Below, piece by piece: positions 1 through 33,184 of a DNA stretch of 37,863 nt. The position numbers and the translations under genes were made by a program. The number at the start of each line of letters is the position of its first letter. Within the stretch, counting starts at the first letter, position 1. The notes below the pieces were generated by a model. That model did no database searches. It saw only the letters and a program-made list of their open reading frames with translations, and was not told the origin of the DNA. The stretch comes from a virus (taxonomy: Duplodnaviria; Caudoviricetes): positions 1 through 37,863 of IMG/VR virus record IMGVR_UViG_3300032295_001490, one strand, 5' to 3'.

Positions 1-285
1 CAAAAAGTTTTAGGGCTTAGTAAGATCAACCGTATAGTAGAATATTTCAGTAAACGTCCGCAAATTCAGGAACGTTTAACAGAGCAGATATTTCACACCT
101 TACAGTTCATCCTTGATACAGAAGATGTTGCAGTTATGATTGATGCTCAACACTATTGTGTTAAGAGTCGTGGTGTAGAAGATACAGGCAGTAGTACTGT
201 TACTTGTCGTTTAGGTGGTGGTTTCAAAACTGACCCAGCCGCAAGACAAGAGTTTTTACAGATTGCTAACAAAGGATGCAAATGA
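1..285 (+). CDS. folE: GTP cyclohydrolase I, C-terminal part (truncated by window start)
   Basis: Frame 1 reads [30 protein letters not shown]...[12 protein letters not shown]..., with the FolE motifs [13 protein letters not shown] and HxC..RGV; TGA at 283-285. Not in the ORF track. Confidence 0.95.
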
Positions 286-410
286 TTACTTTACTATTGA
301 TTGTATTAGTAGCAGTCATTGCTATTTCTATTGTTCGCAGATTACCACCTAGCAGTTGCATCGGAGATTGTAATCAAGGTCGCAACTGTAATTGTGTTAC
401 AAAGGAATAA
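282..410 (+). CDS. small membrane protein with Cys-rich tail (42 aa)
   Basis: Manual translation [42 protein letters not shown]; ATGA overlap with the folE stop. Confidence 0.65.
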
Positions 411-412
411 AA

Positions 413-649
413 ATGGGATTTCGTTCACCAATGGATAAACATTCAGTACAACATCAAATCTACATGGCTGGTGTAGAATTATACAGTCCTTATAACGACG
501 GGTTCAATCAATTTGAAATCAAAAAAGATTTATACAAACTCAAGTGGTTAATTGATTCAATAATGAAAGACAGCCCTGAGTTTGCAGGTGAAAAAGAGTT
601 TGTAGAAGAACATGAAAAAATTGTAATGTGGAAAACACTGGCAAAATAA
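413..649 (+). CDS. hypothetical protein
   Basis: ORF track 392..649; ATG 413 preceded by AAGGA. Confidence 0.7.
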   Translation: MGFRSPMDKHSVQHQIYMAGVELYSPYNDGFNQFEIKKDLYKLKWLIDSIMKDSPEFAGEKEFVEEHEKIVMWKTLAK

Positions 650-654
650 GACTT

Positions 655-900
655 ATGAATAACATGACGAAAGAAGAAGCAAAAGCTTTCATTCGCCGTG
701 TGATGGGTCCTACTAAACGAACATTAGAAGGACAAGAGAAAGAGAACATGTTAACATTGTTCCGTCTTATTGAACCAATAGAAAGTACAAATAATCAAAG
801 GTCGTTTACAGATGAATACTTACATGCAGGTAAAACATATTACGTTCATTATTTTGGAAACGATATAGAAGTAGAGGAAGTATTACCAGATGACAACTAA
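655..900 (+). CDS. hypothetical protein
   Basis: ORF track 628..900; start likely 655 or 664. Confidence 0.65.
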   Translation: MNNMTKEEAKAFIRRVMGPTKRTLEGQEKENMLTLFRLIEPIESTNNQRSFTDEYLHAGKTYYVHYFGNDIEVEEVLPDDN

Positions 901-1042
901 ATATAATTTAACAAAAGCGGCAATCAACATTGAAGATGCTATTGAAATCATTGAACGTGATATAGGTAAATGCAAAGTTGGCATTGAACTAGAAAGATGT
1001 TTAGTGCAATTAAAAGAAATTATTGAAAGAACAAAAGAATGA
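890..1042 (+). CDS. hypothetical protein (50 aa)
   Basis: Manual ORF MTTKYNLTKAAINIEDAIEII...; GAGGA upstream; fills the gap; ATGA overlap with the next gene. Confidence 0.55.
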   Translation: MTTKYNLTKAAINIEDAIEIIERDIGKCKVGIELERCLVQLKEIIERTKE

Positions 1043-1515
1043 TTTTTAACAATATAAAAGAACTAAAGAAGGAAGGCAAACGGGTTGGTATTGTTTTCTC
1101 ATCGTTTGACCTAATGCATGCGGGTCATATAGCAATGCTCAGTGAGGCAAAGAATCATTGTGATTATTTGATTGCAGGACTACAGACTGATCCAACAATT
1201 GATAGACCAGACACTAAGAATAAACCAGTGCAAAGTATTGTTGAACGACAACTTACATTAGGCGCATGTAGATATGTAGACGAAATCGTAGTTTATAGCA
1301 CTGAGCAAGACTTAATCGATTTGATATTGACACTACCTATTGATGTGCGTATACTAGGAGTTGAGTATGAGGATACAAACTTTACTGGGCGCAATGAAGG
1401 CGCAGGTCGTGGAATACACCATGTGTTTAACAAACGAGACCATTCATTTAGTTCTTCAAGTTTACGTAAACGTGTCTATGACAGTGAATCAAACAAAAAA
1501 GGAGAAGTAAAATGA
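1039..1515 (+). CDS. cytidylyltransferase, TagD / glycerol-3-phosphate cytidylyltransferase-like
   Basis: FDLMHAGH (HxGH), GLQTDP, ER..L..CRYVDE and SSSSLR motifs. Confidence 0.85.
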   Translation: MIFNNIKELKKEGKRVGIVFSSFDLMHAGHIAMLSEAKNHCDYLIAGLQTDPTIDRPDTKNKPVQSIVERQLTLGACRYVDEIVVYSTEQDLIDLILTLPIDVRILGVEYEDTNFTGRNEGAGRGIHHVFNKRDHSFSSSSLRKRVYDSESNKKGEVK

Positions 1516-2312
1516 AACCACAAAGAATTTTAATTATGGGTCTGCCTGGTGCAGGAAAAACTTATCTAGCACAATATGTACTAGAGTATTTACAAAATGA
1601 AAAGAAAAAAGTAGGCTGGTTAAACGCAGACGATGTGCGTAAAAAGTACAATGACTGGGACTTTAGCACAGAAGGTCGTATTCGTCAAAGTCATCGTATG
1701 CGTGAACTAGCAGATACAATGACAGAATATGATTATGTTATCTGTGATTTTGTTGCACCATTAGTTGAAATGCGTAATAACTTCAAAGCAGATTGGACTA
1801 TCTGGGTTGATACTATTGATAAAGGTCGATTTGAAGATACCAACAAAGCCTTCATCCCACCCGAAGTTTATGATTTTAGAATTACAGAACAACACGGTGA
1901 AAAGTGGGGCGAGTTCATTGCCGCCCATATATATGACAACCGTCGTAGACCAGTGTTTGATTGGCAGAAAGAAACTGTACAGATGTTAGGTCGTTGGCAA
2001 CCATGGCATCAAGGACATCGTAAGTTGTTTGAACGTGCTATTGCTAAGACTGGGCAAGTAGTTATTCAGATTAGAGATTGTCAAGGATGGCAAGGTAGTA
2101 ATCCTTTTGCGATTGAACAAGTAAAAAGTTTCATCAAGCGTGACTTAGATATGTTATATCAAGGTCAGTATGAGATACAAATCGTTCCAAATATTGTAAA
2201 TATTACATATGGACGTGATGTTGGATATAAGATTGAACAAGAAACTTTTGACGATGCAACCCATGCTATATCTGCCACAAAAATTCGAAAAGAATTAGGA
2301 TTTGGTAAATAA
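1512..2312 (+). CDS. adenylylsulfate-kinase-like P-loop kinase fused to an HxGH nucleotidyltransferase domain
   Basis: N-terminal GLPGAGKT, NADDVR and DFVAP (CysC-like); C-terminal GRWQPWHQGH ... ISATKIR (NMNAT/cytidyltransferase-like). Confidence 0.8.
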   Translation: MKPQRILIMGLPGAGKTYLAQYVLEYLQNEKKKVGWLNADDVRKKYNDWDFSTEGRIRQSHRMRELADTMTEYDYVICDFVAPLVEMRNNFKADWTIWVDTIDKGRFEDTNKAFIPPEVYDFRITEQHGEKWGEFIAAHIYDNRRRPVFDWQKETVQMLGRWQPWHQGHRKLFERAIAKTGQVVIQIRDCQGWQGSNPFAIEQVKSFIKRDLDMLYQGQYEIQIVPNIVNITYGRDVGYKIEQETFDDATHAISATKIRKELGFGK

Positions 2313-2338
2313 GAATAGCGGCCTCGGCGTCATCCCGC

Positions 2339-2367
2339 TTTACAAATTCTGCTGCCTATGCTATAAT
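2339..2367 (+). promoter_or_regulatory. sigma70-type promoter upstream of queD
   Basis: TTTACA-17 nt-TATAAT with extended TG. Confidence 0.65.
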
Positions 2368-2383
2368 AACATAGGAGAAAATA

Positions 2384-2911
2384 ATGGCAAAATATCTTTC
2401 AACAAAAACTTACGGTAACGACAGAGGACTTTCGTGTTGCTTTAGACAATGGCGTAGTACCCATTCACATTGCTCACTACTACACGGATACTCAATCGGT
2501 ATCAAACTAGTTTTTGAATCAGAAACACTAGACGACCGTAATTGGGTTATGGACTTTGGTGGACTCAAAGCATTTAAAGAATGGGCCGACTGGCAATTCG
2601 ATCATACAATGGTCATTGCTAAAGATGATCCGGAACGTGGTACTTTTGTAGAACTGAACAAGATACAAGGCGGGTTTAAAAACATGGGTATCATTGACCT
2701 ACGTATTGTAGATGGCGTGGGATGTGAAATGTTTGCTCAGTTAGTATATAAGGTCATGAATGAAATTTTAGGTGCGTACCAAGCAGGTATAGGATGGATA
2801 CATCCAGATGGTCGAGTATTTGAAGCACGGTATCCAGTAGGCACAGGTGTTCGTTTGCGTAGTGCAGAAGTATTCGAACACGCAGGCAACTCCGCAGTAT
2901 ACGAAGGGTAA
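2384..2911 (+). CDS. queD: 6-carboxy-5,6,7,8-tetrahydropterin synthase (QueD/PTPS family)
   Basis: HCSLLHGY, WVMDFGGLK, FDH and terminal EHAGNSA motifs; SD AGGAG; folE/queE context. Confidence 0.88.
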   Translation: MAKYLSTKTYGNDRGLSCCFRQWRSTHSHCSLLHGYSIGIKLVFESETLDDRNWVMDFGGLKAFKEWADWQFDHTMVIAKDDPERGTFVELNKIQGGFKNMGIIDLRIVDGVGCEMFAQLVYKVMNEILGAYQAGIGWIHPDGRVFEARYPVGTGVRLRSAEVFEHAGNSAVYEG

Positions 2912-2912
2912 T

Positions 2913-3575
2913 ATGGCACACCTAGTAGCAAATATTCCTCCAGTGCATTGTTATATTCGCCGTGAATTCCTTTATGATTTTCAAAAGGGGCATGGCGAAT
3001 ATGAACCTTGCATTTGGGTAAGTATAAAAAGCCTACGTAGTCAAGCATTTAGAATCGAAGCATACTTACCTAGATATGGTGCATTATATGACAAACTACC
3101 TTTACATGCATATGTAAGCAGAAACAAAGATTTAGATTCAGCTAAGTTTTTAGATTTGGATACACTACAAATTTGGGACTGTTTTAGTTATGATTTCACT
3201 GTAATACAAAAGGCATTCTTGCGTAATTTAAGTTGCAAGTTCTACGCAAAAGATAAAAACTTTTATCAAGGCAATTATCTTTTTACGGTAGACCATAGTG
3301 CTCCTGATTTAAATTTGATTGATACTAGTTATGCTGAATGGCCAGAAGATCACAAGAGTTTCAATTTCATTGAATTAGAAAACGGGCAGTATGCGGCTCA
3401 ACCAAATAACCGTTGCATATTCTTGGATGCGGCTAGCAATCCAAAAGAACTGCTATTCCCGGACTTTAAAGTAGCTACTAAAAAATATGTAGTAGAAACT
3501 AATCCCAAATGGGCATTAGGTGATTCTACTACCGTGATGTACGAAGAGGATAAAGATGTTAGAAACAATATGTGA
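2913..3575 (+). CDS. conserved hypothetical phage protein
   Basis: ATG 2913 (MAHLVANIPPV...), tightly packed between queD and the aldolase gene. Confidence 0.75.
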   Translation: MAHLVANIPPVHCYIRREFLYDFQKGHGEYEPCIWVSIKSLRSQAFRIEAYLPRYGALYDKLPLHAYVSRNKDLDSAKFLDLDTLQIWDCFSYDFTVIQKAFLRNLSCKFYAKDKNFYQGNYLFTVDHSAPDLNLIDTSYAEWPEDHKSFNFIELENGQYAAQPNNRCIFLDAASNPKELLFPDFKVATKKYVVETNPKWALGDSTTVMYEEDKDVRNNM

Positions 3576-4191
3576 TATTATGGTAGACGCTTATAAGCGT
3601 AACTGGATTACCAGTCGTGACGGCAACATAAGCATTCGTCATCATGATCGTGACCACTTTTACATTACACCCAGTGGTGTACGTAAGCAAACACTACAAC
3701 CCGATCAGTTTAAAAAGATTGGTATTATGTTTCAACCAGTTGAAAGGTGGAACTGGGTAGATTTACCATATACTGACATTAGTAAGAATCTAAAGCCCAG
3801 TGGAGAAATTCCACTACACTTTGGCTTACAAAAGCGTATGGGACAACACGCAGGAGAAGTTCGTGTAATAGTACATGTGCATCCTACGTACTGCATTGCA
3901 GCCATGCATGCCGGCATTGACCTAAGCACTATTAGTAATGCGTTTCCAGAACTCAATCGCTATACAAAAGTTGCTCCAAACGTGGGTGATGTTCCTCCAA
4001 TTAGTCAAGAACTTGCTGATCGTTGTCATGAGAATCTCAAGTTAGATGATTATGGTAATATTGCCTACGACATTGTAGGGATTAAAGGACATGGAGTTGT
4101 AGCTATTGATACAAGCCCATGGCGTGCTTACGAGCACATAGAAAGATTAGAACATATTTGTAAAATTGTATTAGCAAGTGGAAAATATTAA
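3556..4191 (+). CDS. class II aldolase/adducin family protein (FucA/AraD/MtnB-like)
   Basis: DGNIS, ITPSG, PSGEIPLH, VHVHP and GHGVV Zn-binding motifs. Confidence 0.88.
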   Translation: MLETICDIMVDAYKRNWITSRDGNISIRHHDRDHFYITPSGVRKQTLQPDQFKKIGIMFQPVERWNWVDLPYTDISKNLKPSGEIPLHFGLQKRMGQHAGEVRVIVHVHPTYCIAAMHAGIDLSTISNAFPELNRYTKVAPNVGDVPPISQELADRCHENLKLDDYGNIAYDIVGIKGHGVVAIDTSPWRAYEHIERLEHICKIVLASGKY

Positions 4192-4388
4192 TGATGAAGT
4201 TTTTTTCTAGAGGTGTAGAAACATTACGACAACCTGACCGCAATCCTAGATGTTATGAATTGACAGATAAAGAACGACTTGATAAAATTCGTGAGTGGAA
4301 CAATCGTAATATTTGGAATGATCCTTCTCTCACTTATGAAGATGCGTTAGCACAAGACTTACCAAAAAATAGATACTACGGAGCATAA
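4191..4388 (+). CDS. hypothetical protein
   Basis: ORF track; coupled to the upstream stop. Confidence 0.6.
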   Translation: MMKFFSRGVETLRQPDRNPRCYELTDKERLDKIREWNNRNIWNDPSLTYEDALAQDLPKNRYYGA

Positions 4389-4389
4389 T

Positions 4390-4485
4390 ATGACCATTAA
4401 TGAAATTATTGCCATAGTACTCATGATAACTGTAGTAGGAGTAGTACTATGGGATATGCACAAGAATAAGGATAATAATGAATAA
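4390..4485 (+). CDS. small membrane peptide (31 aa)
   Basis: Manual ORF MTINEIIAIVLMITVVGVVLWDMHKNKDNNE with GGAG upstream. Confidence 0.45.
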   Translation: MTINEIIAIVLMITVVGVVLWDMHKNKDNNE

Positions 4486-5644
4486 AAATGTAGCAGTCAT
4501 CGGGGCCGGCATTACAGGCATTACAACAGCATATTACCTTGCTAAAAAAGGTTATAGTGTGACTGTCTATGAACAAGAACCACATGCGGCAATGCGTACA
4601 AGTTTTGCCAATGGTGGTCAAGTAAGTGTCAGCAACAGCGAAGTCTGGACTACTTGGAGCAATGTAAAGAAGGGCATCAAGTGGCTCTTTAAGAAAGATG
4701 CTCCGTTATTGATTCGTCCCAGACTTGATTGGGCACAATGGCGATGGATGACAAAGTTTCTTTGGAATACTATTACCAATCAATACGAAAAGAATACTAG
4801 TGAAACAATTAAGATGGGGCTAGAGTCTAGTAAGTTGTACAAGGAGATTATGTACAGTGAAAGATTATCATTCGACCAATCACCCTCAGGCATTCTTCAC
4901 TTCTACAAAGACAAACAATACTTTGAAGCCGCTAAACAAGCACAACAAATCTATCGAAAGAATGGATGTGAATGGGATATTCTTTCAGCCGAGAAAACAA
5001 AAGGGCTTGACAGTACATTATCTAATGTTCATGGAATAATCGGTGGTGCTTGGACATTGAGTGACTGGACAGGTGACATTCACAAGTTTTGTTATGAACT
5101 TGCTAAGGTTCTTGAAAACAAATACGGTGTTATATTCGAATATAACTGGAAGATTAACCATATCGAAGAAGTTTCATACTACGATGCGGTAGTCATTAGC
5201 AATGGTGTCGGTAGTACACGGTTAGCAAAGACTGTGGGTGACACGATTGATGTGTATCCCGTTAAAGGTTACAGCATCACTATTAACAATGTAGACAAGA
5301 AACACTTACCTGTTGTTAGTCTATTAGATGACCAAGCTAAGATTGTCACAAGTAGTTTGGGCAATAGATTCCGTGTTGCAGGTACTGCTGAGTTAACAGG
5401 TGAAAACTATGATATCAAACATGACAGAGTTAAACCTTTGTTAGATTGGGTACATACTAATTTCCCAAATATCAATACACATGACTACACAAGTTGGGCA
5501 TGTTTAAGACCAATGACCCCAAATATGATGCCTATTACCAAACGTAGTGACAAAAATTCTAAAGTGTTCTATAATACAGGACATGGTCATTTAGGTTGGA
5601 CATTAGCTCCAGTAACAGCAAAACGAATTGCGGATATAATATGA
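4478..5644 (+). CDS. dadA: D-amino acid dehydrogenase-like FAD-dependent oxidoreductase
   Basis: GAGITG FAD motif, TSFANGGQ, YPVKGYSIT, WACLRPMTP and NTGHGHLGWT. Confidence 0.88.
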   Translation: MNKNVAVIGAGITGITTAYYLAKKGYSVTVYEQEPHAAMRTSFANGGQVSVSNSEVWTTWSNVKKGIKWLFKKDAPLLIRPRLDWAQWRWMTKFLWNTITNQYEKNTSETIKMGLESSKLYKEIMYSERLSFDQSPSGILHFYKDKQYFEAAKQAQQIYRKNGCEWDILSAEKTKGLDSTLSNVHGIIGGAWTLSDWTGDIHKFCYELAKVLENKYGVIFEYNWKINHIEEVSYYDAVVISNGVGSTRLAKTVGDTIDVYPVKGYSITINNVDKKHLPVVSLLDDQAKIVTSSLGNRFRVAGTAELTGENYDIKHDRVKPLLDWVHTNFPNINTHDYTSWACLRPMTPNMMPITKRSDKNSKVFYNTGHGHLGWTLAPVTAKRIADII

Positions 5645-6492
5645 ATCAAATAAAAATTAGTGAGTTATTTTATAGTATTCAAGGTGAGGGTCGATACATG
5701 GGTGTACCGAGTGTGTTCTTACGCACATTTGGTTGCAACTTAAAATGTGCTGGCTTCGGTATGCCTCGAGGTGAATTGAGTGAAGAAAGAATTGATATTG
5801 CTAAACAAGCACAAAATTACAAAGATTATAAATCCTTACCACTTGTCAGTACGGGATGTGATTCTTATGCATCTTGGGACCCTAATTTTAAACATCTTAG
5901 TCCTTACTACAGTACCGATACTATTGTTAGTCGCATTATGGATATACTGCCATTCAATAGTTGGCACGATGAGCACTTGGTTATCACGGGTGGTGAACCG
6001 CTTCTAGGATGGCAACAACTATATCCCGAATTACTAAGTCATGAAAAGATGACTAACTTAAAAGAGTTAACATTTGAAACTAATGGTACACAACCATTAG
6101 GTGAAGAACTTAAAAAGTTTTTTCAAAAGAAATGGCATAGACAAAAAGGCATTGAGACAATTACATTCAGTGTTAGTGCAAAACTATCTAGCAGTGGTGA
6201 GAAACTTGAAGATACTATTTGCCCTGATATAGTTCGTGAATATGAAATGTATGGTCATGCATATCTCAAGTTAGTTGTTGCAACGAATGAAGATGTTGAG
6301 GAAGCACTAGAAGTAGTCAACACATATCGTAAGGCCAACTTCTATGGTCCAGTTTACTTGATGCCAGTAGGTGGTGTTGAAAAGGTATACAGTTTGAACA
6401 ATCGCCGAGTTGCAGAACTTGCAATGAAGCATGGGTTGCGTTATAGCGATAGATTACAAGTGCCATTGTTTAAAAACGAGTGGGGCACTTGA
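5641..6492 (+). CDS. queE: 7-carboxy-7-deazaguanine synthase (radical SAM)
   Basis: ELFYSIQGEG, FLRTFGCNLKC...CDS, ITGGEPL, FETNGT and RLQ motifs; ATG 5641 overlaps the dadA stop. Confidence 0.9.
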   Translation: MNQIKISELFYSIQGEGRYMGVPSVFLRTFGCNLKCAGFGMPRGELSEERIDIAKQAQNYKDYKSLPLVSTGCDSYASWDPNFKHLSPYYSTDTIVSRIMDILPFNSWHDEHLVITGGEPLLGWQQLYPELLSHEKMTNLKELTFETNGTQPLGEELKKFFQKKWHRQKGIETITFSVSAKLSSSGEKLEDTICPDIVREYEMYGHAYLKLVVATNEDVEEALEVVNTYRKANFYGPVYLMPVGGVEKVYSLNNRRVAELAMKHGLRYSDRLQVPLFKNEWGT

Positions 6493-6710
6493 TGCCACAA
6501 ACACAATCATACGATCATTTCTATGAGAGAGTGGTAGGCACTGAATATAAGTTTGCTTGGTTACCTAAAACTTGTCACATATCGGGAAAACGTATTTGGT
6601 TAAAGAAGGGTTACCTATTGACTAGACTTATTACTGGGCCCGGCGATACACTATTTGAGTATCGTTGGCATGATAAGAATGCCCATATTATATGGAAGTT
6701 AACAAGGTAA
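6492..6710 (+). CDS. hypothetical protein
   Basis: ORF track 6480..6710; TGATG coupling at 6492. Confidence 0.65.
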   Translation: MPQTQSYDHFYERVVGTEYKFAWLPKTCHISGKRIWLKKGYLLTRLITGPGDTLFEYRWHDKNAHIIWKLTR

Positions 6711-6717
6711 ATACAAG

Positions 6718-8067
6718 ATGAAATTATACAATAAACGAATTGCATTCTTAATTAGTGACCAGCATTTTATTCCCCATGGTGGAATCGGTAGCTTTTGTAA
6801 AAGCTTTACTGAAATGTGCGGTAGGTTGAATTGGAAGGTTGATGTTATTTTAGATAAAGCACCTACCGGTACATTTGATACAGTCATTGAGAATGCAGGT
6901 GCTAATCTAGTTTGGCCATTAGAACCATTACGTTATAACAACCATACTTCAACATTTGCGTTTAGTGATACTATAAATTTTGAAAAGATTATTAACTTTC
7001 GAACCGCATTAGTAGAAGCATTTGAAGAAAATGTATATGATATGATTGTGTGTAACACACAAGAAGCGATGACTGCGGCGTATGCATTGACTGTCAATAG
7101 ATACATTCCAGTTGTATTCTATACACATTTGCATAGTATGATCTTCCGTGAAAGTCAAGGCAGTGATGTGTTTTTAGATAGCTATCATAACTTCTATAAC
7201 AAGCATATGGAATTTAGTGATATCATTATCGGCACACAGAGTCAAAAGAACATTGACGAATTGACAAAATACGGTGCGTCTAACTGTGCTTTACTACCCA
7301 TGCCTATGAGTGAGCGTGGATTACTAGAGCCATATACAGGACCTCGTAAAGGAGTATTGTTTATAGGTCGATGGGAAGAAGGTAAAAACCCAGAAGCATA
7401 TCTTAGAGCAATGAAAGAGGCAAAACTTCCTTGCAAGGTAATGACTAATAATAATGGTGCTAAGAAGTTTGAAAAGGCTTTCAAAGAAGCAGGCATCACT
7501 GATTATGAAATTAAAGCAGGGATTACTGGTCAAGAGAAAGTAGACTTTATTCGCAGTAGCAAGGTATTCTTTATGCCAAGTCTGCGTGAGAACTATCCAT
7601 TTGCATTTTTAGAATGTTTGGGTCACATGCCTTGTGTAGTACTTGATACACAAGATTGGTCAGATAACTTTAATAGCATTTTCTTTCACAAGACACATAT
7701 TAGCACAGCGGCTGATAGAATCAAGACCCTATATGATATAGATCAACCATCAGATGCGTTAGAATATGTAAAGCAACTAGATGATAAAGTAGCACAAGCA
7801 TGGGTTAAGTTCTTAATTGATTTTGTAGGTAAGCGTAGTAATACAAATACTGCAAAGATTAACTCATATGAAACAATCAAGTACAGAGATTACATAAAAG
7901 AACTGGATCGAAAATTTATAGCACGTGAAGATTTCGAAAGTGTGTTATCAAATAAACACAAGTTTATCAATGTTTGGTACACTGACAATGATACATATTT
8001 GAGCAAAGACCCAACATTTAAACCAACAATAGAGGAAACAAGTGAAAGCTTGTTTGAATGGCAATGA
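6718..8067 (+). CDS. glycosyltransferase, GT-B fold (family 4-like)
   Basis: PHGGIG N-terminal loop, LFIGRWEEGKN, and MPSLRENYPFAFLE (EX7E). Confidence 0.82.
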   Translation: MKLYNKRIAFLISDQHFIPHGGIGSFCKSFTEMCGRLNWKVDVILDKAPTGTFDTVIENAGANLVWPLEPLRYNNHTSTFAFSDTINFEKIINFRTALVEAFEENVYDMIVCNTQEAMTAAYALTVNRYIPVVFYTHLHSMIFRESQGSDVFLDSYHNFYNKHMEFSDIIIGTQSQKNIDELTKYGASNCALLPMPMSERGLLEPYTGPRKGVLFIGRWEEGKNPEAYLRAMKEAKLPCKVMTNNNGAKKFEKAFKEAGITDYEIKAGITGQEKVDFIRSSKVFFMPSLRENYPFAFLECLGHMPCVVLDTQDWSDNFNSIFFHKTHISTAADRIKTLYDIDQPSDALEYVKQLDDKVAQAWVKFLIDFVGKRSNTNTAKINSYETIKYRDYIKELDRKFIAREDFESVLSNKHKFINVWYTDNDTYLSKDPTFKPTIEETSESLFEWQ

Positions 8068-8891
8068 AGAAAATTTTAATTACAGGTAGCTCAGGCTACA
8101 TCGGTTCGCATCTATGTGATCTATTAGCAGGTGAATATGAAGTACATGGACTTGATATCAATGACCCGCAAGTAGAAGTTGATAAGTTTTATAAACTAGA
8201 TATCAACAAGCAGTTCTCAATCGAAGGTATTGAGTTTGATGCAGTTGTGCATTTGGCTGCATTAGTCAATGTAGGTGAGAGTCAAGAACGACCCATCAGC
8301 TATTATATTACTAACTTGAACGGTACAATGAATGTAATGAACAAAGTAAAGACAAAAAACTTTATCTTTGCTAGTACTGGTGCCGCTCAAGATTGCATTA
8401 GTGCATATGGTGTCAGTAAACGTGCCGCAGAAGATGTAGTTCGTTCATACACAAAGATGTCGGAATCAGACTATACTATCTTTAGATTCTACAATGTTAT
8501 AGGTACTACAGTTGTAAAGCCAACTAATCCAGATGGATTATTCTACAATCTAATCAAAGCTAAAGACACTGGTTCTTTCACTATCTATGGCACTGATTAT
8601 CCAAACACCAGTGACGGTACATGTGTTCGTGACTATGTTCATGTAGAAGAAATATGCCACGCTATCAAAATGGCAATTGAGAAGCCTGCAAACAAAACTG
8701 AATGTTTAGGACATGGTGTGGGATATACAGTACAAGAAATGTCTAGTATCTTTCAAAAAGTCAACGACTGCAACTTTGAGGTAATCAAAGGACCACGCAG
8801 AGACGGTGACATTGAGTACTATGTACTAGCAGATGTAAGTCCATATATGAAGAACCTCTACAGTGTAGAGGATCTTTTGAGAATTGATTAA
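8064..8891 (+). CDS. galE: NAD-dependent epimerase/dehydratase (UDP-glucose 4-epimerase-like)
   Basis: TGSSGYIGS, HLAA..VGES, YGVSK, RFYNV, DGTCVRDYVHV and RRDGD. Confidence 0.85.
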   Translation: MKKILITGSSGYIGSHLCDLLAGEYEVHGLDINDPQVEVDKFYKLDINKQFSIEGIEFDAVVHLAALVNVGESQERPISYYITNLNGTMNVMNKVKTKNFIFASTGAAQDCISAYGVSKRAAEDVVRSYTKMSESDYTIFRFYNVIGTTVVKPTNPDGLFYNLIKAKDTGSFTIYGTDYPNTSDGTCVRDYVHVEEICHAIKMAIEKPANKTECLGHGVGYTVQEMSSIFQKVNDCNFEVIKGPRRDGDIEYYVLADVSPYMKNLYSVEDLLRID

Positions 8892-9436
8892 GTATAGCCT
8901 CGTACTCTGTCAAAGAAAGAAGGCTTGTTAACTTCAGGCCCTTTGACTTCACCGTGACGCTTATGTTGACCACCATAGTCATAGTATTTACCTATTAGGT
9001 CATATCCATGTTTGAAAAACAATGCGGCTGGTGGTTGACTCATTCTCATTATACCAACACGTTCTTTGCCTTGCGGTGCAGGCTTTACGCCCTTCTCACC
9101 ACGTTTAATCGGTTGTAACCAAGCATTGGGTTTGAGTTTTACTAACCATGCATAAGGTTGTTCGCTTGCATAAACAGTACGTTTTTGATCCAAATATGTT
9201 TCTAATGGGTAGAACCAAAGTACAGGACGACCTTTACCATGACCAATGTAATCTACGTCAAAGTTAGGGTCGTCAGCATCTGGCGTTTTACCAAACCATT
9301 GTTTAGCACTATAGCCTAACTTGTCCATACCAGTAAATCTCACAAAGTATTGTCCAGGACCGTTCTTCTTAACATCAGCAAGAATTTGATCTCGGACGCT
9401 TACTTTGGCTTCTGTGATGAACTCAACTGACCTCAT
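8888..9436 (-). CDS. hypothetical protein, putative head-internal protein
   Basis: N-terminus MRSVEFITEA resembles the T4 internal-protein capsid-targeting sequence (MKTYQEFIAE). Confidence 0.65.
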   Translation of the reverse strand: MRSVEFITEAKVSVRDQILADVKKNGPGQYFVRFTGMDKLGYSAKQWFGKTPDADDPNFDVDYIGHGKGRPVLWFYPLETYLDQKRTVYASEQPYAWLVKLKPNAWLQPIKRGEKGVKPAPQGKERVGIMRMSQPPAALFFKHGYDLIGKYYDYGGQHKRHGEVKGPEVNKPSFFDRVRGYT

Positions 9437-9437
9437 A

Positions 9438-11384
9438 TTAGTGTTTTAATAGTAGGGTTGATATAATGTTAGGATCGTTAGCACTTATATCACCCTCACC
9501 CGGTGCAACAATAACGTTGTACTTCATGCCTGCCGGTATAGACTTGCGCTTAGCCATGTACTCATCATAGCTAAGAATAGAGTTCGCACTGAGTCCGTAC
9601 TCACTAGCCAATCTTTGTTTTAGTTCAGGTAACTTGTCAGGTTGCACTTGCGATTGTCCGCTTGGCCCCTTAACTAAGTTTTTCTTTTCGTCCTTAACTA
9701 ACAAATCTTGGAACAAGTCATCAGGAACAATGCGACTATTCTTAGTTGTATCTAAGTTAGCATCTTTAGCTTTGACTTGCTTCTCTTGTCCTGTATTAGC
9801 ACCCTCACTCCAGTTGATAATAAAGTTAGCTGGCTTCTGTGCTAGTGCCGCATCAGCCATCTTTGTATAAGCATAGAACTTAACACCAGGATGTTGTGCA
9901 GCCATCTTCAATGCCATGTCTAAGTATTCTGGACTAAAGAAGTCACCGGCATCGTGCCAACGAATAGTTACTTCATAACCACCTTTATCTCCCAACTTTT
10001 CTTCTTTAGCAATCTCTGCACTTAATTGACCAAAGAAACCATCTGGATCATTCAATAGATATGTTAGTATGCGACCATCACTCAACCATGCGGCTTTAAA
10101 CTGAACTTTACCACCCTTCATTGCAAAGCAATCTACCTTACATGAACCAGCACCCGGGCATGTATTAACGATGATTAGATTGTTTGTTTCTTCATCTAAT
10201 GCAATACCGGTCAATGCGGCAAAGCCAACGTTGAAGAACTGTTCTAGTTCACCGTTACTGTGTTTCATCTTTTCGTTTTGCTTTAACAACTTCTTAGGGC
10301 GTTGTCCTAAAGCGGCTTTAATTTTATCTTCACTGTAATTCTCTCCATCAGGACCTAGGTATTCAATTACACTACTACGATGGATATAAGGCATTTTATA
10401 TCTGTCTGTTTTTGTTTTACCAGAGACATACTTTTCATTGCCCTTCTTATCAGTCTTAACATTACCTTGTTTGTCAACATCAGGTGTACCAACGATACGC
10501 TTCATATAGTCTTGAAATTCATCGCTACCCAAATCACGTGTTTGTGCTGGTAGTTTTGTAGCTTCACCTAGCCCGGATAATTTGCGAATTTCTGCTAAAT
10601 GATCTTCACCTTCCGCCACACCTTGCTGACCTTGACTCATTCTGTGTAGAGTATTCAACTCATCCATCATGGCCTTTCCTGCTTGTTTAACATCGCCAGT
10701 ATGTTTCATAATTGTATAGGCAGTATCAATAGCACCCAGCATTTCTTGTTCGCTGGGACGCCATCCTTTAACAGTCTTGGCTAAAAAGTCCATTATCCGC
10801 GGCGCTGTCTTTAGCAAATGTGCCTTGTATTTTTCTGCTTCTTCAGAACCTTCCGCCACACCTTGTCCTAATACTTGTTTTACTAACAGTTGAGGTGCAA
10901 AATCCATATCACCTGCTAACTCTCTTGCGGCTGCTAATACTGCTTGTGGAGTAGGTTGTAATCTTTTTTCTTCTACATCCCGGCGTAGTTTCATAATAAG
11001 AGATTGTGCATCATATCCTAAATCTCTAACGCCCTCCGCCACACCTAGTTTCTTATCTCTCTTTACAGCATCACTGTATGTTTTCAATACACCAGGATTC
11101 TTTTTAACAAGTTTGTTTAACTCTTTGCCACTTTCAATATCTTTTGACTTTTGAACATCTTTGGCATATTTTTTAGTCAAGTCAGGTCTTGCCTTCAACA
11201 AATCTCTTAGCATTTTATCATATTCATCTTCTTCTAATGTATCTTCTGCCACACCTTGCTCTGATTCTTCACCGGGCATGTCGCCAGCTTTAGCAACGAA
11301 TTGCTGAGGTGTCATAATTTGGATACCCTCTGGGGCTCCTGCTAATTTTGGCTCTGCGCCTTCCATTAAATGTTTGATTTTCAT
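9438..11384 (-). CDS. modular protein with GVAE(G) repeats and C-terminal GP88-like Cys-rich domain
   Basis: ATG at 11384 (MKIKHLMEG); four GVAE motifs; C-terminal TCPGAGSCKVDCFAMKG, IRWHDAGDFFS and FYAYTK. Confidence 0.75.
   Translation of the reverse strand: MKIKHLMEGAEPKLAGAPEGIQIMTPQQFVAKAGDMPGEESEQGVAEDTLEEDEYDKMLRDLLKARPDLTKKYAKDVQKSKDIESGKELNKLVKKNPGVLKTYSDAVKRDKKLGVAEGVRDLGYDAQSLIMKLRRDVEEKRLQPTPQAVLAAARELAGDMDFAPQLLVKQVLGQGVAEGSEEAEKYKAHLLKTAPRIMDFLAKTVKGWRPSEQEMLGAIDTAYTIMKHTGDVKQAGKAMMDELNTLHRMSQGQQGVAEGEDHLAEIRKLSGLGEATKLPAQTRDLGSDEFQDYMKRIVGTPDVDKQGNVKTDKKGNEKYVSGKTKTDRYKMPYIHRSSVIEYLGPDGENYSEDKIKAALGQRPKKLLKQNEKMKHSNGELEQFFNVGFAALTGIALDEETNNLIIVNTCPGAGSCKVDCFAMKGGKVQFKAAWLSDGRILTYLLNDPDGFFGQLSAEIAKEEKLGDKGGYEVTIRWHDAGDFFSPEYLDMALKMAAQHPGVKFYAYTKMADAALAQKPANFIINWSEGANTGQEKQVKAKDANLDTTKNSRIVPDDLFQDLLVKDEKKNLVKGPSGQSQVQPDKLPELKQRLASEYGLSANSILSYDEYMAKRKSIPAGMKYNVIVAPGEGDISANDPNIISTLLLKH
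10609..11258 (-). repeat. four dispersed 17-bp direct repeats, consensus CAAGGTGTGGCGGAAGG
   Basis: Copies at 10609-10625, 10849-10865, 11032-11048 and 11242-11258; spacings 240, 183 and 210 nt, all in frame. Confidence 0.9.
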
Positions 11385-11401
11385 GCTGGTTTCCGTAAAA
11401 T

Positions 11402-11430
11402 TTGACAATAAATACGACTTATTGTATACT
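11402..11430 (+). promoter_or_regulatory. sigma70 promoter for uvsE
   Basis: TTGACA-ATAAATACGACTTATTG(17)-TATACT. Confidence 0.75.
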
Positions 11431-11458
11431 ATCTAATATTTATCATTCTGGACTTCTT

Positions 11459-12484
11459 ATGCACTCTTTCGACATTACTACTAAACGCATCGGCTTTGCT
11501 TGCAAATGGGCTGAAATCAACAAGAAAGGCGAGATTGCCAGCACAGAGGGCCTCAATACAGGCGGCACTACAATGGCTTGGGCAAAGCGCAACAATCGTT
11601 CTAAGGTTGAGGAAAAAATCATTGATGTTGCAAAAACCAACATTCTCAACACACACGCACTAGTCAAAAAGGTAGCTACTCTACCCGAACCACTACGTAT
11701 GTTGCGTATCACTAGTGACATGTTCAGTTTTTATACACATGAGGACTATACTGACTTTTGGCAACGACCCGACATTCAATCAAGTCTTGAACGTTGGATG
11801 GCACCCATCGGCGAGACTGCACGACAAAACAATGTTCGTCTTAGCTTTCACCCTGACCAATTCGTAGTTCTTGCAAGTGATCGTCCTGATGTAGTAACTA
11901 AGAGTATCGAGGAGTTCGAATACCACGCTACTATGGCTCGCTTTATGGGCTATGGCAAGACGTTTCAGGACATGAAGATCAACGTTCACATCAGTGGTCG
12001 TCAAGGTCCCGAAGGTATTCGTAAGGCATATCAGCGTCTGTCTCCCGAAGCACGTAACTGTATCACTATCGAGAACGAAGAAAATGCCTGGGGACTTGAC
12101 GATTGCCTTACTCTATCTGATCTGCTTCCAATTGTTTTGGACATTCATCATCATTGGTGCAGAGAGGGAGAATACCTGGCAGTCACCGAAGAGCGGGTTC
12201 AGTCTGTTATTAATAGCTGGCGCGGTATTCGCCCTACTCTACATTATAGTGTGTCACGTGAAGATATCCTTGTTGGTCATTGCAGTAATACTTTACCATG
12301 CCGCAACAGCTTAATTGCTGAAGGTACTAATAAGCAAAAGCTACGTGCCCATAGTGACTATTACTGGAATCATGCAGTAAATAAATGGGCAATGACTTTC
12401 AATGATAAATTCGATATGATGTGCGAATCTAAGGCTAAGAATTTAGCTAGTTTCAAACTATATGAGGAATATGTGAATGTTTGA
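11459..12484 (+). CDS. uvsE: UV DNA damage endonuclease (UvsE/UVDE)
   Basis: RIGFACK, LRITSD, RLSFHPDQF, TIENEE, VLDIHHH, HYS, RAHSD and MCESKAK. Confidence 0.92.
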   Translation: MHSFDITTKRIGFACKWAEINKKGEIASTEGLNTGGTTMAWAKRNNRSKVEEKIIDVAKTNILNTHALVKKVATLPEPLRMLRITSDMFSFYTHEDYTDFWQRPDIQSSLERWMAPIGETARQNNVRLSFHPDQFVVLASDRPDVVTKSIEEFEYHATMARFMGYGKTFQDMKINVHISGRQGPEGIRKAYQRLSPEARNCITIENEENAWGLDDCLTLSDLLPIVLDIHHHWCREGEYLAVTEERVQSVINSWRGIRPTLHYSVSREDILVGHCSNTLPCRNSLIAEGTNKQKLRAHSDYYWNHAVNKWAMTFNDKFDMMCESKAKNLASFKLYEEYVNV

Positions 12485-27273: not shown

Positions 27274-28476
27274 ATGAACCAAGAAAACAAACTAGACCAT
27301 TGTTCCTTTTGTGGCAACCACAAAGATATTGTTAAAAAACTTATCGTAAGCGATACAGTGGCAATATGTAATAACTGTATTGATCTATGCACTCAGCTTA
27401 TAAACGATGATCCTACAGTAGAAGAAAAAGACTTAAAGCCAGTACTTGATCCAGTAGAAATCAAAGCATATTTAGACAAGTATGTAATTGGGCAACCAGG
27501 TGCTAAAATGGTTCTTAGTGTAGCAATTGCAAATCATTTTAAACGAATCGAGAATCCACCAAAAGATTTAGAAATCTCAAAAGGTAATATCTTATTAGTA
27601 GGTCCAACTGGTTCAGGCAAGACACTATTAGCAAAGACAGTTGCTAAGTTTCTTAATGTTCCACTAGTTGTAGCAGATGCAACAAGTTTAACAGAAGCAG
27701 GTTACGTAGGTGATGATGTAGAATCCATGATTAGTATGTTAGTTAATGCCGCCGGTGGTGATGTTAAACTAGCAGAACGTGGTATAGTATTCGTTGATGA
27801 AATTGACAAGATTGCACGTAAAAGTGAGTCTGCTAGTATCACACGTGATGTTAGTGGTGAAGGCGTTCAACAAGCATTATTGAAACTTGTAGAAGGAACA
27901 ACATGTCGCATTCCTGCTGGTGGCGGTAGAAAACACCCCGGTGGTGATATGCTTGAAGTTAGCACAAAGAACATTCTATTCATTGCAGGCGGTGCGTTTG
28001 TTGGATTGACAGATATTGTAAAATCTCGCAAAAAAGGTACTACTATCGGTTTTGGTGCAGATATCAAATCTACTGAAGAACAAGTTAGCTTAGAACATGT
28101 AACTCCCGATGATCTTACACGTTTCGGTATGATTCCTGAGTTCATTGGTCGTTTCACTACAACAGTTACATTAGAAGACCTAAACAAAGAACAATTGTTA
28201 CAGGTATTGACAGAAATCAAAAACAATTACATCAGTCAATATCAATACTTGTTTGAATTAGATGATGTCAATTTATCATTTGAACCTGAATCATTGGATC
28301 AGATTGCCGAAAACTGTTTAAAACTTAAAACAGGTGCACGTGGATTGCATACAGAGATTGAAAAGGTATTGATGCCACACATGTACAATCTTAGAAACTA
28401 CAGTAAAAACGGTATCAAAGAAATAGGTGTCACACGTGAAATGGTGTTAGATCCAAAACCATTCGATGTATCCTAA
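27274..28476 (+). CDS. clpX: ATP-dependent Clp protease ATP-binding subunit ClpX
   Basis: CSFCG..C..C Zn domain, GPTGSGKT, GYVG pore loop, DEIDK, RDVSGEGVQQ, RKHP, IGF loop and GARGL. Confidence 0.96.
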   Translation: MNQENKLDHCSFCGNHKDIVKKLIVSDTVAICNNCIDLCTQLINDDPTVEEKDLKPVLDPVEIKAYLDKYVIGQPGAKMVLSVAIANHFKRIENPPKDLEISKGNILLVGPTGSGKTLLAKTVAKFLNVPLVVADATSLTEAGYVGDDVESMISMLVNAAGGDVKLAERGIVFVDEIDKIARKSESASITRDVSGEGVQQALLKLVEGTTCRIPAGGGRKHPGGDMLEVSTKNILFIAGGAFVGLTDIVKSRKKGTTIGFGADIKSTEEQVSLEHVTPDDLTRFGMIPEFIGRFTTTVTLEDLNKEQLLQVLTEIKNNYISQYQYLFELDDVNLSFEPESLDQIAENCLKLKTGARGLHTEIEKVLMPHMYNLRNYSKNGIKEIGVTREMVLDPKPFDVS

Positions 28477-28520
28477 ATACTAGAATTTTTTGCGTGTTTT
28501 TGTTATAATAAATACGTATT

Positions 28521-28581
28521 GTAGATGCTCATGGTGAGGTCTACTTATAGTCATCTTGCTTATTAAAGGAGAAAACAAATG
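28521..28581 (+). promoter_or_regulatory. ROSE-like RNA thermometer in hsp20 5' UTR
   Basis: 5' hairpin 28521-28544, then UCUU-G-CUU/AUUA/AAGGAGA pairing the SD with a bulged G (UUGCU motif). Confidence 0.65.
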
Positions 28582-29016
28582 ACAAATCTATCCCTTCGTT
28601 CCTTGGATATTCCATCCATTCACAAATTCGCAGTTGGTTTTGACAACATGTTTGATGAAATCATGCGAACAACAGCCCAAACTACTAACTATCCCCCTTA
28701 CAATGTTGTGAAACATGGTGAAGATAAGTTTGCCATTGAATTGGCAGTAGCCGGCTTCAAGGATGGTGATATTGAAGTTACCGTTGAAAAAAATCAACTA
28801 ACTGTCAAGGGTGAAAAAGCAATCGAACTCAATGAAGGTGCAGAATATCTGCATCGTGGAATCAGTGCCCGTAGTTTCGTAAGAACTTGGACTCTCGCTG
28901 ATTACGTTGAGGTCACTGGGGCTGTAGTTCAAGACGGTATCCTAACTGTCAATCTAGAACGCATTGTTCCAGAAGAAAGCAAGCCCAAGAAGATTGCTAT
29001 TAGCTTCACTAAATAA
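28579..29016 (+). CDS. hsp20: small heat shock protein Hsp20 (IbpA-like)
   Basis: GFD, NYPPYNV, ELAVAGF, YLHRGIS.RSF, DGIL...L..VPE..KPKKI.I. Confidence 0.95.
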   Translation: MTNLSLRSLDIPSIHKFAVGFDNMFDEIMRTTAQTTNYPPYNVVKHGEDKFAIELAVAGFKDGDIEVTVEKNQLTVKGEKAIELNEGAEYLHRGISARSFVRTWTLADYVEVTGAVVQDGILTVNLERIVPEESKPKKIAISFTK

Positions 29017-29025
29017 TATAATAGC

Positions 29026-29055
29026 AGTGTGCGGTAATTACGCCGCACACTTTTT
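29026..29055 (+). terminator. hairpin plus U tract between hsp20 and clpS
   Basis: AGTGTGCGG-TAATTACG-CCGCACACT-TTTT. Confidence 0.65.
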
Positions 29056-29069
29056 CAAAGAGAATTAAA

Positions 29070-29375
29070 ATGGCAAAAACAGATACCAAAGTCAAAATCA
29101 AACCCAATATTGCTTTACAAGAACCCCCATTGTTTAAAATCATCTACATCAATGATGATGTGACAACTATGGAGTTTGTTGTAAGTTCCCTAGTAGATTA
29201 TTTTGACTATTCTACTGATACCGCAGTGAATCTTACTAAAGACATTCATCAAGAAGGAAGTGCTGTAGTTGCTATTCTGCCCTATGAAATTGCAGAGCAA
29301 AAAGGTATTGAAGTTACATTAGAAGCACGAACACAAGGCTATCCTCTACAAGTGAAAGTCGAAGCCGAAGCTTAA
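29070..29375 (+). CDS. clpS: ATP-dependent Clp protease adaptor ClpS
   Basis: EPPLFKIIYINDDVTTMEFV, IH.EG.AVV, YEIAEQK and YPL. Confidence 0.93.
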   Translation: MAKTDTKVKIKPNIALQEPPLFKIIYINDDVTTMEFVVSSLVDYFDYSTDTAVNLTKDIHQEGSAVVAILPYEIAEQKGIEVTLEARTQGYPLQVKVEAEA

Positions 29376-32593: not shown

Positions 32594-33184
32594 ATGAGTC
32601 TAGTCCCTATGGTTTTGGAACAAACGTCACGCGGTGAGCGTAGTTATGATATCTACAGTCGTCTATTGCGTGACCGTGTTATTTTGCTTGAGGGCGAAGT
32701 ACATGACCAAATGGCAAATCTAATCGTTGCCCAGCTACTGTTCTTGGAATCAGAGAACCCAGATAAGGACATTAGTCTCTATATCAACAGCCCCGGTGGT
32801 AGTGTAACTGCTGGCATGGCTATCTATGATACAATGCAATTCATCAAATCCGATGTTCAAACTATCGTGATGGGTCAGGCATGTAGTATGGGAAGTTTAC
32901 TTGCACAAGCAGGTGCAAAAGGTAAACGCACGATTCTTCCTAATGCACGACACATGATTCACCAACCCTCAGGTGGCGCACGTGGTCAAGCTACTGACAT
33001 GGAAATTCAAGTCAAAGAAATTTTGGCTATGAAAAAATCTCTGACACAAATCTACGTTGACCACAATAGTGCAGGCAAGTCATTCAAAGACTTGGCAAAG
33101 GACATGGAACGTGACTATTTCATGAGTGCCCAAGAAGCCGTAGACTATGGCCTTGCTGATAAAGTACTCATAAATCGCGGTTGA
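32594..33184 (+). CDS. clpP: ATP-dependent Clp protease proteolytic subunit ClpP
   Basis: [19 protein letters not shown], catalytic Ser (ACSMG), His (MIHQP) and Asp (MERD). Confidence 0.97.

Follow-up and report, generated by a model that had tools for sequence, protein, structure and literature searches.

A repeat inside coding sequence as site of in-frame cassette exchange, and probable head-protease site, in the GP88 gene of giant T4-like lake phages

Organization of the locus

The window analysed here comprises the 37,863 bases of a virus record, and the gene under study occupies positions 9438 to 11384 of its minus strand, on which the parts of the gene listed below are located. The ORF finder places the start of this gene at a TTG (position 11408; ORF 9438-11408), whereas homologues begin at the ATG at position 11384, which gives a protein of 648 amino acids composed of a leader, three cassettes, a spacer and a GP88 core. 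The first eight residues (11361-11384) end in L-M-E, resemble the N-termini of the T4 internal proteins IPII and IPIII, and are predicted to represent a capsid-targeting propeptide. They are followed by a conserved leader (11244-11360), which ends in the first of four copies of a 17-bp repeat, R1 (11242-11258). The repeats R2 (11032-11048), R3 (10849-10865) and R4 (10609-10625) delimit, together with R1, cassette A (70 amino acids, 11034-11243), cassette B (61 amino acids, 10851-11033) and cassette C (80 amino acids, 10611-10850). Behind R4 lies a spacer of 16 amino acids (10563-10610) that reads I-R-K-L-S-G-L and then x-E|A; it is similar to the tail at the C-terminus of the scaffold-position protein and is predicted to serve both as a hook to the prohead core and as the last cut site. 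The remainder of the gene encodes a conserved core of 374 amino acids (9441-10562; Pfam GP88, PF17338) with an invariant Cx5Cx3C motif (codons at 10160, 10142 and 10130) and a predicted radical-SAM-like partial barrel.

Compared with CAAGGTGTGGCGGAAGG, the four copies of the repeat carry 0, 0, 2 and 2 mismatches. Only 0.05 chance matches are expected in the window, four or more copies were obtained in 0 of 100 shuffles, and no further copy with up to three mismatches was found elsewhere in the window. All four copies lie in frame in a single ORF at spacings of 210, 183 and 240 bp, which correspond to 70, 61 and 80 codons. The original prediction had placed four 17-bp repeats at these minus-strand coordinates, with three in-frame, mutually unrelated units of the same codon lengths between them; exactly these repeats were recovered in the window, and the spacings agree. 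The peptide QGVAEG, which it had assigned to the joint, holds as the consensus and is encoded by R3 and R4 (Q-G-V-A-E|G), but not by R1 (Q-G-V-A-E|D) and R2 (L-G-V-A-E|G). The heptamer ATAAATA, a late-promoter candidate, is located about 55 bp upstream of the gene and was likewise present upstream of 17 out of 38 orthologues. A late promoter was not retained as an assignment, the heptamer being only weakly enriched before genes with a CTS-like (capsid-targeting) start in the related genome G002 (4/14 versus 53/383).

Conservation of the joint at the DNA level

For the analysis of codon usage, the best 80 of 494 loci were picked by the core protein and not by the motif, which avoids selecting on the motif itself. 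Among 97 distinct GVAE contexts in these loci, glycine was encoded by GGT in all 97, valine by GTG in 89 and alanine by GCG in 90, while the background in the long ORFs of the same loci, some spurious frames included, was 54% for GGT, 13% for GTG and 8% for GCG. Similar frequencies (0.60, 0.12 and 0.07, respectively) were obtained for 19 curated ORFs of the window. The GVAE copies in the 80 loci are related to each other, so that the codon counts do not represent independent trials; likewise, under an assumption of independence, the codon use of the copies in the window would have a probability of about 3e-8. These copies are not independent, and this non-independence is itself the finding. 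Codon context can be excluded as the cause of the bias, since Val-Ala, Ala-Glu and VAE rarely use these codons elsewhere: outside of GVAE, valine before alanine is GTG in 104 of 1100 cases, GCG accounts for 57 of 880 alanines before glutamate, and GTG-GCG for 6 of 98 VAE peptides that lack the preceding glycine. Conservation therefore acts on the DNA as well as on the peptide, as had been proposed.

The exact 16-mer is estimated to occur in about 1500 stored viral stretches. A 14-mer pattern was found 2 to 10 times per genome in five large related genomes, in which the reversed control gave no match. In 133 loci chosen by the motif and comprising many unrelated host genes, the longest open frame was the GVAE frame for 218 of 225 motif copies. 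Out of 202 distinct spacers of up to 1200 bp, 190 consist of stop-free triplets, and the remaining 12 all cross a gene boundary, each of them holding a stop and a new start. The spacers have a median length of 75 amino acids (10th to 90th percentile, 53-192), and about 160 cassette families were distinguished from 214 loci.

Three other explanations for the conserved sequence were considered, of which the G-quadruplex was rejected. It is suggested by four GG runs in the consensus, yet copies without the fourth GG equally keep GTG and GCG (85 and 82 of 96). Moreover, genes for FolE and QueD and a QueE-like gene in the window suggest 7-deazaguanine DNA, in which a quadruplex would be disfavoured. 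A Chi-like genome-wide motif is not supported by G002, where sub-words of the repeat show no strong excess (the largest, for GTGGCGG, being 57 versus 35). An internal GTG start at the valine codon would agree with GTG-to-ATG changes in 42 of 475 junctions, but third-base G-to-A changes, which destroy the start, were as common (51).

Cassette exchange within and between genes

The orthologue set comprised the best 120 of 2193 proteins, two of which are the window's own protein. Their cores are 85-100% identical, while total length varies from 435 to 831 amino acids. Joints of the type GV/M-x-E are absent from 49 of these proteins; one joint is present in 17, two in 29, three in 13, four in 10, and five and six in one protein each, so that the alignment of orthologues that had been suggested as a check does reveal variable module content. 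Locus L004 carries the order B-C-A instead of A-B-C, a circular permutation, and the interior of its cassette A is identical to that of the window in 193 of 193 nucleotides at the other position, with the alignment stopping at the repeats.

The same cassettes were found in unrelated genes. Cassette B occurs at 43 loci, which represent at least 11 host-gene classes, cassette A at 17 loci in at least 10 classes (7 among its 10 close loci with 88% identity or more) and cassette C at 13 loci in at least 9 classes; the classes were formed by single linkage of protein ends, and these counts are lower bounds. In L246 and L247, a different gene body follows behind the leader of the GP88 gene and cassette B. 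Among the loose ends listed, 23 of 24 fall no more than six bases from a repeat (27 more exist).

The arrangement leader-A-B recurs in L283, and B-C-A in L004, in L245 and in three (X4, X5 and X6) of eight public runs, six of which are labelled as lake water. The C-to-A joint in these three runs has 13 shared letters, and their contigs continue from cassette A into the core; since they reach the core, a joint that "goes back 633" represents a linear B-C-A allele and not proof of a circle. Free circles were not seen in the eight contig runs, in which contigs drop rare forms. Relatives with the same core have genomes of 260-520 kb. The joint is thus a shared in-frame site of cassette exchange within and between genes of a giant T4-like lake-phage lineage, and modules are gained, lost, reordered and moved between genes exactly at the repeat, as the original prediction had anticipated.

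The GVAE-type joint is absent from the GP88 gene of G002. Another T4-like lineage joins homologous modules by a different standard joint, KEEVEQIDE. Cassette A itself retains 56-66% identity in a distant lineage that uses another joint.

Predicted processing by the head protease

A gp21-type protease (PF03420) is encoded in 5/5 related genomes carrying the same core gene, and in G002 the portal, protease and major head protein genes follow in T4 order according to PHROGs. In all five genomes, the major head protein contains [LIVM]xE at residues 5, 17, 32 and 41 and once more near its end, i.e., four of its five sites lie within the first 43 residues. The scaffold-position protein, which is named by its position only and receives no name from PHROGs, contains 25-29 such sites. 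The pattern resembles that of T4, with propeptide sites in the head protein and many sites in the scaffold-position protein; T4 gp21 is described to cut after L/I-X-E, to shred core proteins and to trim propeptides (PMC9026906), and the SPN3US protease to cut after A-X-E (PMC5694885). The valine at P3 of the joint lies outside the L/I-X-E rule of T4.

The interiors of the cassettes avoid the cut motif. In 100 non-redundant cassettes of up to 110 amino acids with trimmed ends (longer spacers, many of them multi-module, were left out), [LI]xE was found 13 times versus 32.9±5.1 in shuffled sequences, [LIV]xE 26 times versus 46.6±5.8 and [LIVM]xE[GAS] twice versus 11.0±3.3, with a slight bias against internal VAE|G because spacers are defined by the repeat. 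Control motifs were flat ([LIV]xD, 75 versus 69.7; [LIV]E, 50 versus 47.1; Ex[LIV], 49 versus 46.6), and two longer spacings were mildly low (0.81, P 0.08-0.09). The avoidance implies selection on the cassettes to survive maturation intact. In contrast, 13 enzymes of the window are not depleted of the motif but enriched in it (69 versus 53.7). No depletion was observed in the GP88 core (3 versus 4.0) or in the bodies of 13 CTS-like proteins of G002 (33 versus 34). The glutamate is kept at nearly all junctions, even at those without the DNA repeat. The proposal that V-A-E is a T4-type head-protease site is thus supported indirectly by the protease gene and the motif avoidance, and is in disagreement with the T4 rule as far as valine is concerned. 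Judged from these sequence patterns, cleavage at V-A-E|G and packaging of the product appear quite likely.

Predicted targeting to the prohead

N-termini of the T4 internal proteins (NC_000866) were used for comparison. In T4, ten residues are described as sufficient for targeting, with residues 8 and 10 setting the processing (PMC9026906). A loose CTS-like pattern is present in 64/98 repeat-bearing ORFs and in 58/397 ORFs of G002, and a tighter pattern, written post hoc, in 47/98 and 14/397, respectively. Distant cores (30-45% identity) also start CTS-like, 89 of 146 of them matching the loose pattern.

In 5/5 genomes, the spacer in front of the core has a match in the final residues of the scaffold-position protein. 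The corresponding tail-like pattern was found in 118 of 120 orthologues, and in G002 it is confined to 2 of 397 ORFs, namely the GP88 gene and the scaffold-position ORF. A complex prediction for the major head protein and the tail-like spacer, both from G002, was uninformative, with a score of 0.02. A distant homologue of cassette A is part of a gene between the portal and the head protease (L294). Capsid loading, which had been assumed for the modules, is thus made plausible in an indirect way by the CTS-like starts, the scaffold-tail-like spacer and the homologue in the head gene cluster. Of the 137 ORFs that bear the motif, many of which are partial, only 3 carry the tail-like tag.

Taken together, the joint is an exchange site and, as we consider probable, also a prohead-protease site of a polyprotein that is likely targeted to the capsid. 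The N-terminal peptide and the scaffold-tail-like spacer would bring the precursor into the prohead core, where the gp21-type protease would cut after each hydrophobic-x-Glu. The polyprotein would in this way release a variable set of proteins of 50-100 residues and the GP88 enzyme inside the head.

Cassettes and core

Cassettes A, B and C gave no match to Pfam or PADLOC, and when the full protein was compared with PHROGs, matches were confined to the core. In a Pfam search with the window protein and 24 orthologues, GP88 alone passed the cut-off, with no embedded protease or listed polyvalent domain. Cassettes are rich in lysine (11.6% versus 6.5%), and 67 of 131 have a net positive charge; T4 internal proteins are described as basic as well (PMC9026906). 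A single-sequence fold of the cassette region reached a pLDDT of 46.7, too low to be used. With cassette B, nothing but short hypothetical clusters was obtained from the ESM Atlas at 0.90, with low recognition.

The core was predicted with a pLDDT of 93.9, and its Cx5Cx3C motif is invariant in 75 core sequences. In structural comparisons it came closest to spore photoproduct lyase, with a Z of 7.3 and an rmsd of 4.5 for 200 residues. This match is weak, as unrelated models commonly reach similar values, though many of the top-ranking chains belong to radical SAM enzymes. Foldseek against the PDB gave no match at E<=0.001, and PDB sequence searches with the core gave nothing significant. Cultured phages contain only distant GP88 matches of 31-33% identity that cover less than half of the query. 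According to the predicted structure, the core might weakly resemble radical SAM enzymes.

Discussion

Analysis of 475 junction contexts, which are not phylogenetically independent, showed that bases up to -2 follow the upstream module and bases from about +11/+13 follow the downstream module. Variants within the core of the joint are mostly private G-to-A changes that are seldom passed on with either neighbour. Counted by family, with small numbers inside the core, position +11 follows the downstream module in 7/11 versus 4/15, and positions +3 and +8 lean upstream (3/8 and 4/10 versus 0/4 and 1/4). Exchange may therefore fall inside the core of the joint, perhaps near its 3' end. Modules also adjoin plain x-x-E|G linkers, and cassette B adjoins linkers that share little beyond the Glu-Gly codons; 162 instances included 11 distinct degenerate linkers at left edges of modules and 4 at right edges. 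A polarity, in which each cassette carries its own 3' repeat, was considered on the basis of these 11 versus 4 junctions, 8 of the 11 deriving from cassette B, and is not established.

No tyrosine recombinase (PF00589; controls 14/14), serine recombinase of the resolvase type (PF00239) or reverse transcriptase (PF00078) was detected in five related genomes, three of which are rated complete, while a RecA/UvsX-family gene is present in all five. The integron-like or CRISPR-like machinery that the original prediction had envisaged is thus not reflected in the gene content, and this reading is weakened further by the 49 of 120 orthologues without a GVAE-type joint and by the plain x-x-E|G junctions. 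Since no recombinase of these types was found, RecA/UvsX is ubiquitous in these genomes, and KEEVEQIDE serves as joint elsewhere, we prefer general recombination. The phage's own machinery would act on 13-17 bp of homology, and the standard sequence would be kept by a compatibility effect without a dedicated enzyme, a variant joint losing access to the cassette pool. A homology of 13-17 bp is short for RecA/UvsX recombination. A dedicated recombinase is nevertheless unlikely.

The strongest alternative keeps the polyprotein and its cleavage, but lets AGGTGTGGCGGA be read by a dedicated sequence-specific recombinase, nickase or host factor, which would make the system truly integron-like. Such a factor would account for one rare-codon sequence being fixed across many genes and the estimated 1500 stretches, for core variants that are private and not inherited with either neighbour, for the family-level linkage that hints at exchange near +9/+10, and for the circular permutation. 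We consider it improbable in view of the three protein families without a match in the five genomes, the repeat having no dyad symmetry evident by eye, the degenerate linkers at module edges, the unrelated joint of another lineage, and sub-motifs without strong excess in G002.

In a second alternative, improbable as well, the cassettes are released by cleavage, yet most of them would be neutral or selfish passengers, or else core filler or DNA-binding peptides comparable to fragments of T4 gp67 and gp68. Flanking cut sites would make a cassette harmless to its host protein and allow it to spread without an effector role, and the optional, lysine-rich cassettes do jump between unrelated genes regardless of context and contain no known domains. 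Interiors that avoid the cut motif and a cassette A preserved in a distant lineage with another joint argue against this reading.

In the preferred mechanism, some of the freed modules would be injected along with the DNA and, like the internal proteins of T4, counteract host defences; T4 Ip1-3 are each described as a specific GmrSD inhibitor (PMC12373910). This is the weakest step of the proposed mechanism, and by this analogy the chances of a counter-defence cargo among the modules appear evenly balanced.

It is very improbable that the joint is a mere recombination hotspot that encodes a flexible linker in an uncut multidomain product, possibly outside of the virion. The core without motif depletion would agree with such a product, cleavage at the joint being a prediction, but neither the glutamate kept with and without the DNA repeat, nor the spacing-specific depletion inside cassettes, nor the CTS-like starts and the copy of the scaffold tail would be expected. 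Mis-assembly of metagenomes via short repeats can practically be dismissed: although every sequence derives from uncultured assemblies, the same arrangements occur in the independent records named above, reading frames are kept, and a repeat of 13-17 bp is shorter than usual assembly words.

Comparison with known systems

In integron cassettes and CRISPR arrays, too, repeats alternate with units that are gained, lost and reordered. The present system differs from integrons in having no tyrosine integrase, no attC-like inverted repeat detectable by eye and no dedicated array locus. CRISPR arrays contain non-coding spacers of constant length, whereas the spacers described here are coding and variable (53-192 amino acids, 10th to 90th percentile). 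In addition, copies of the joint are scattered among many genes, with in-frame translation of the units.

The internal proteins of T4 (IPI, IPII, IPIII and Alt) are alike in their short N-terminal peptide ending in hydrophobic-x-Glu (PMC9026906; PMC12373910; PMC3012670), in being a small, basic and highly variable cargo, and in their association with a T4-type head protease. The two hypervariable IP loci of T-even phages also share a repeat-associated variability of the cargo set (Repoila 1994, via PMC2839356; PMC12373910). However, T4 internal proteins are encoded by separate genes, each with its own CTS, whereas here many modules share one CTS and one frame. Furthermore, the T-even repeats are promoter elements between genes, while the present repeat lies inside coding sequence and encodes a predicted cut site. 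In the loci found, cassettes A, B and C always occur in multi-module ORFs, and a narrow search for stand-alone B gave none among 10 candidates of 33-107 amino acids.

Shuffling at promoter-early stem-loops (PeSLs) in RB49/phi1, PST and nt-1 is similar in that unrelated ORFs are inserted, deleted or replaced at short dispersed repeats (PMC2839356; PMC4122927). Mini-circles are described to form between these repeats, with no dedicated recombinase identified (PMC2839356); PeSLs thus provide a precedent for exchange without a dedicated enzyme and support our preference for general recombination. As described there, PeSLs are intergenic promoter and terminator units of early genes, whereas the joint described here comprises 13-17 bp, lies in frame and builds fusion proteins. 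No promoter or hairpin role was found for the joint, whose copies lie in frame inside ORFs in the 218 of 225 cases mentioned above.

Polyvalent proteins combine many unrelated domains in one virion-delivered polypeptide that is thought to be released by proteolysis, and cassette recombination has been raised as a possibility for them (PMC5512222). They are described to contain large enzyme domains that an embedded metallopeptidase processes (Iyer 2017); no embedded protease was detected here. The word "linker" does not occur in the main text of PMC5512222, and no DNA-conserved joint is mentioned in the parts examined. In its mode of operation, the present system resembles a combination of T-even IP loci with PeSL shuffling, and its construction is like that of a polyvalent protein (PMC5512222; PMC7824862), but it lacks a defining feature of each of these, and likewise of integrons and CRISPR arrays. 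No description of an in-frame dual-use joint was found in searches of the open-licence literature, and "GVAEG" appeared there only in unrelated papers.

Significance

Two themes of T4 biology, capsid-loaded internal proteins and repeat-mediated cassette shuffling, are joined here in one sequence. Since this sequence is both DNA joint and probable cut site, each swap stays in frame and clean release of its product would follow. The motif marks the exact borders of the cargo and thereby provides a library of small, probably virion-delivered proteins that can be screened against bacterial defences, a field in which few injected phage proteins with counter-defence function are understood. A still broader reading, which we regard as possible but rather unlikely, is a lineage-wide plug-in system based on 13 bp of coding sequence, which an undescribed recombination factor would recognise as DNA and the head protease as peptide. 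Giant phages would thereby gain access to a common pool of hundreds of mini-proteins and inject them as anti-defence effectors. If this were true, the joint could be used to locate a large collection of new anti-defence proteins directly. Exchange at the joint explains the strong variation in gene length in abundant uncultured lake phages, and it is a warning that such ORFs are mosaics.

Exchange of modules and gene halves in related loci

Two related viral loci carry the leader of the GP88 gene together with cassette B, in fusion with the body of a different gene (L246:66-1322 and L247:3-911), and whole gene halves are therefore swapped. Modules are also linked in three loci of a different T4-like lineage (L291, L292 and L293, around 2400-3500), here by a joint reading KEEVEQIDE whose codons are fixed in part only, and a homologue of cassette A is found among the modules joined in this way. 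The consensus joint of the polyprotein gene ends in GGAAGG, despite the scarcity of this hexamer in the large genome of a related phage (G002), where it is rarer than expected across the whole record (29 occurrences vs 71 under a Markov model), possibly reflecting an avoidance of Shine-Dalgarno-like words. In G001, another such genome, equal spacing of 381 bp was observed in two repeat pairs (176505-176899 and 524058-524452), and this recurrence suggests a duplicated assembly segment within this 524-kb record.

Genomic context of the polyprotein gene

The plus-strand genes within 1-8891 likely represent a 7-deazaguanine DNA modification cluster accompanied by sugar enzymes. They comprise family matches to FolE (PF01227) and QueD (PF01242), a QueE-like radical SAM gene (match below cut-off), and class II aldolase-like, GT-B glycosyltransferase and epimerase genes. 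ClpX-, Hsp20-, ClpS- and ClpP-like genes, recognized by eye at 27274-29375 and 32594-33184 (+), look like a phage-borne proteostasis set.

Two further ORFs, both without family matches, are candidate head cargo judging from their N-termini: that at 8888-9436 (-) has a start resembling a capsid-targeting peptide and fits the tight pattern, which was written after seeing the data, and that at 31012-32544 (+) begins similarly and lies outside the pattern.

The polyprotein gene stands head to head with a UvdE UV endonuclease gene (11402-12484, +), and a near-perfect sigma-70 promoter (11/12) at 11402-11430 overlaps the stretch between them. UvdE was found in 61 of 80 orthologous loci, the best 80 of 494 matching the core protein. 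Since the best, weak structural match of the GP88 core is spore photoproduct lyase, a role of this domain in UV repair may be considered as a loose lead.
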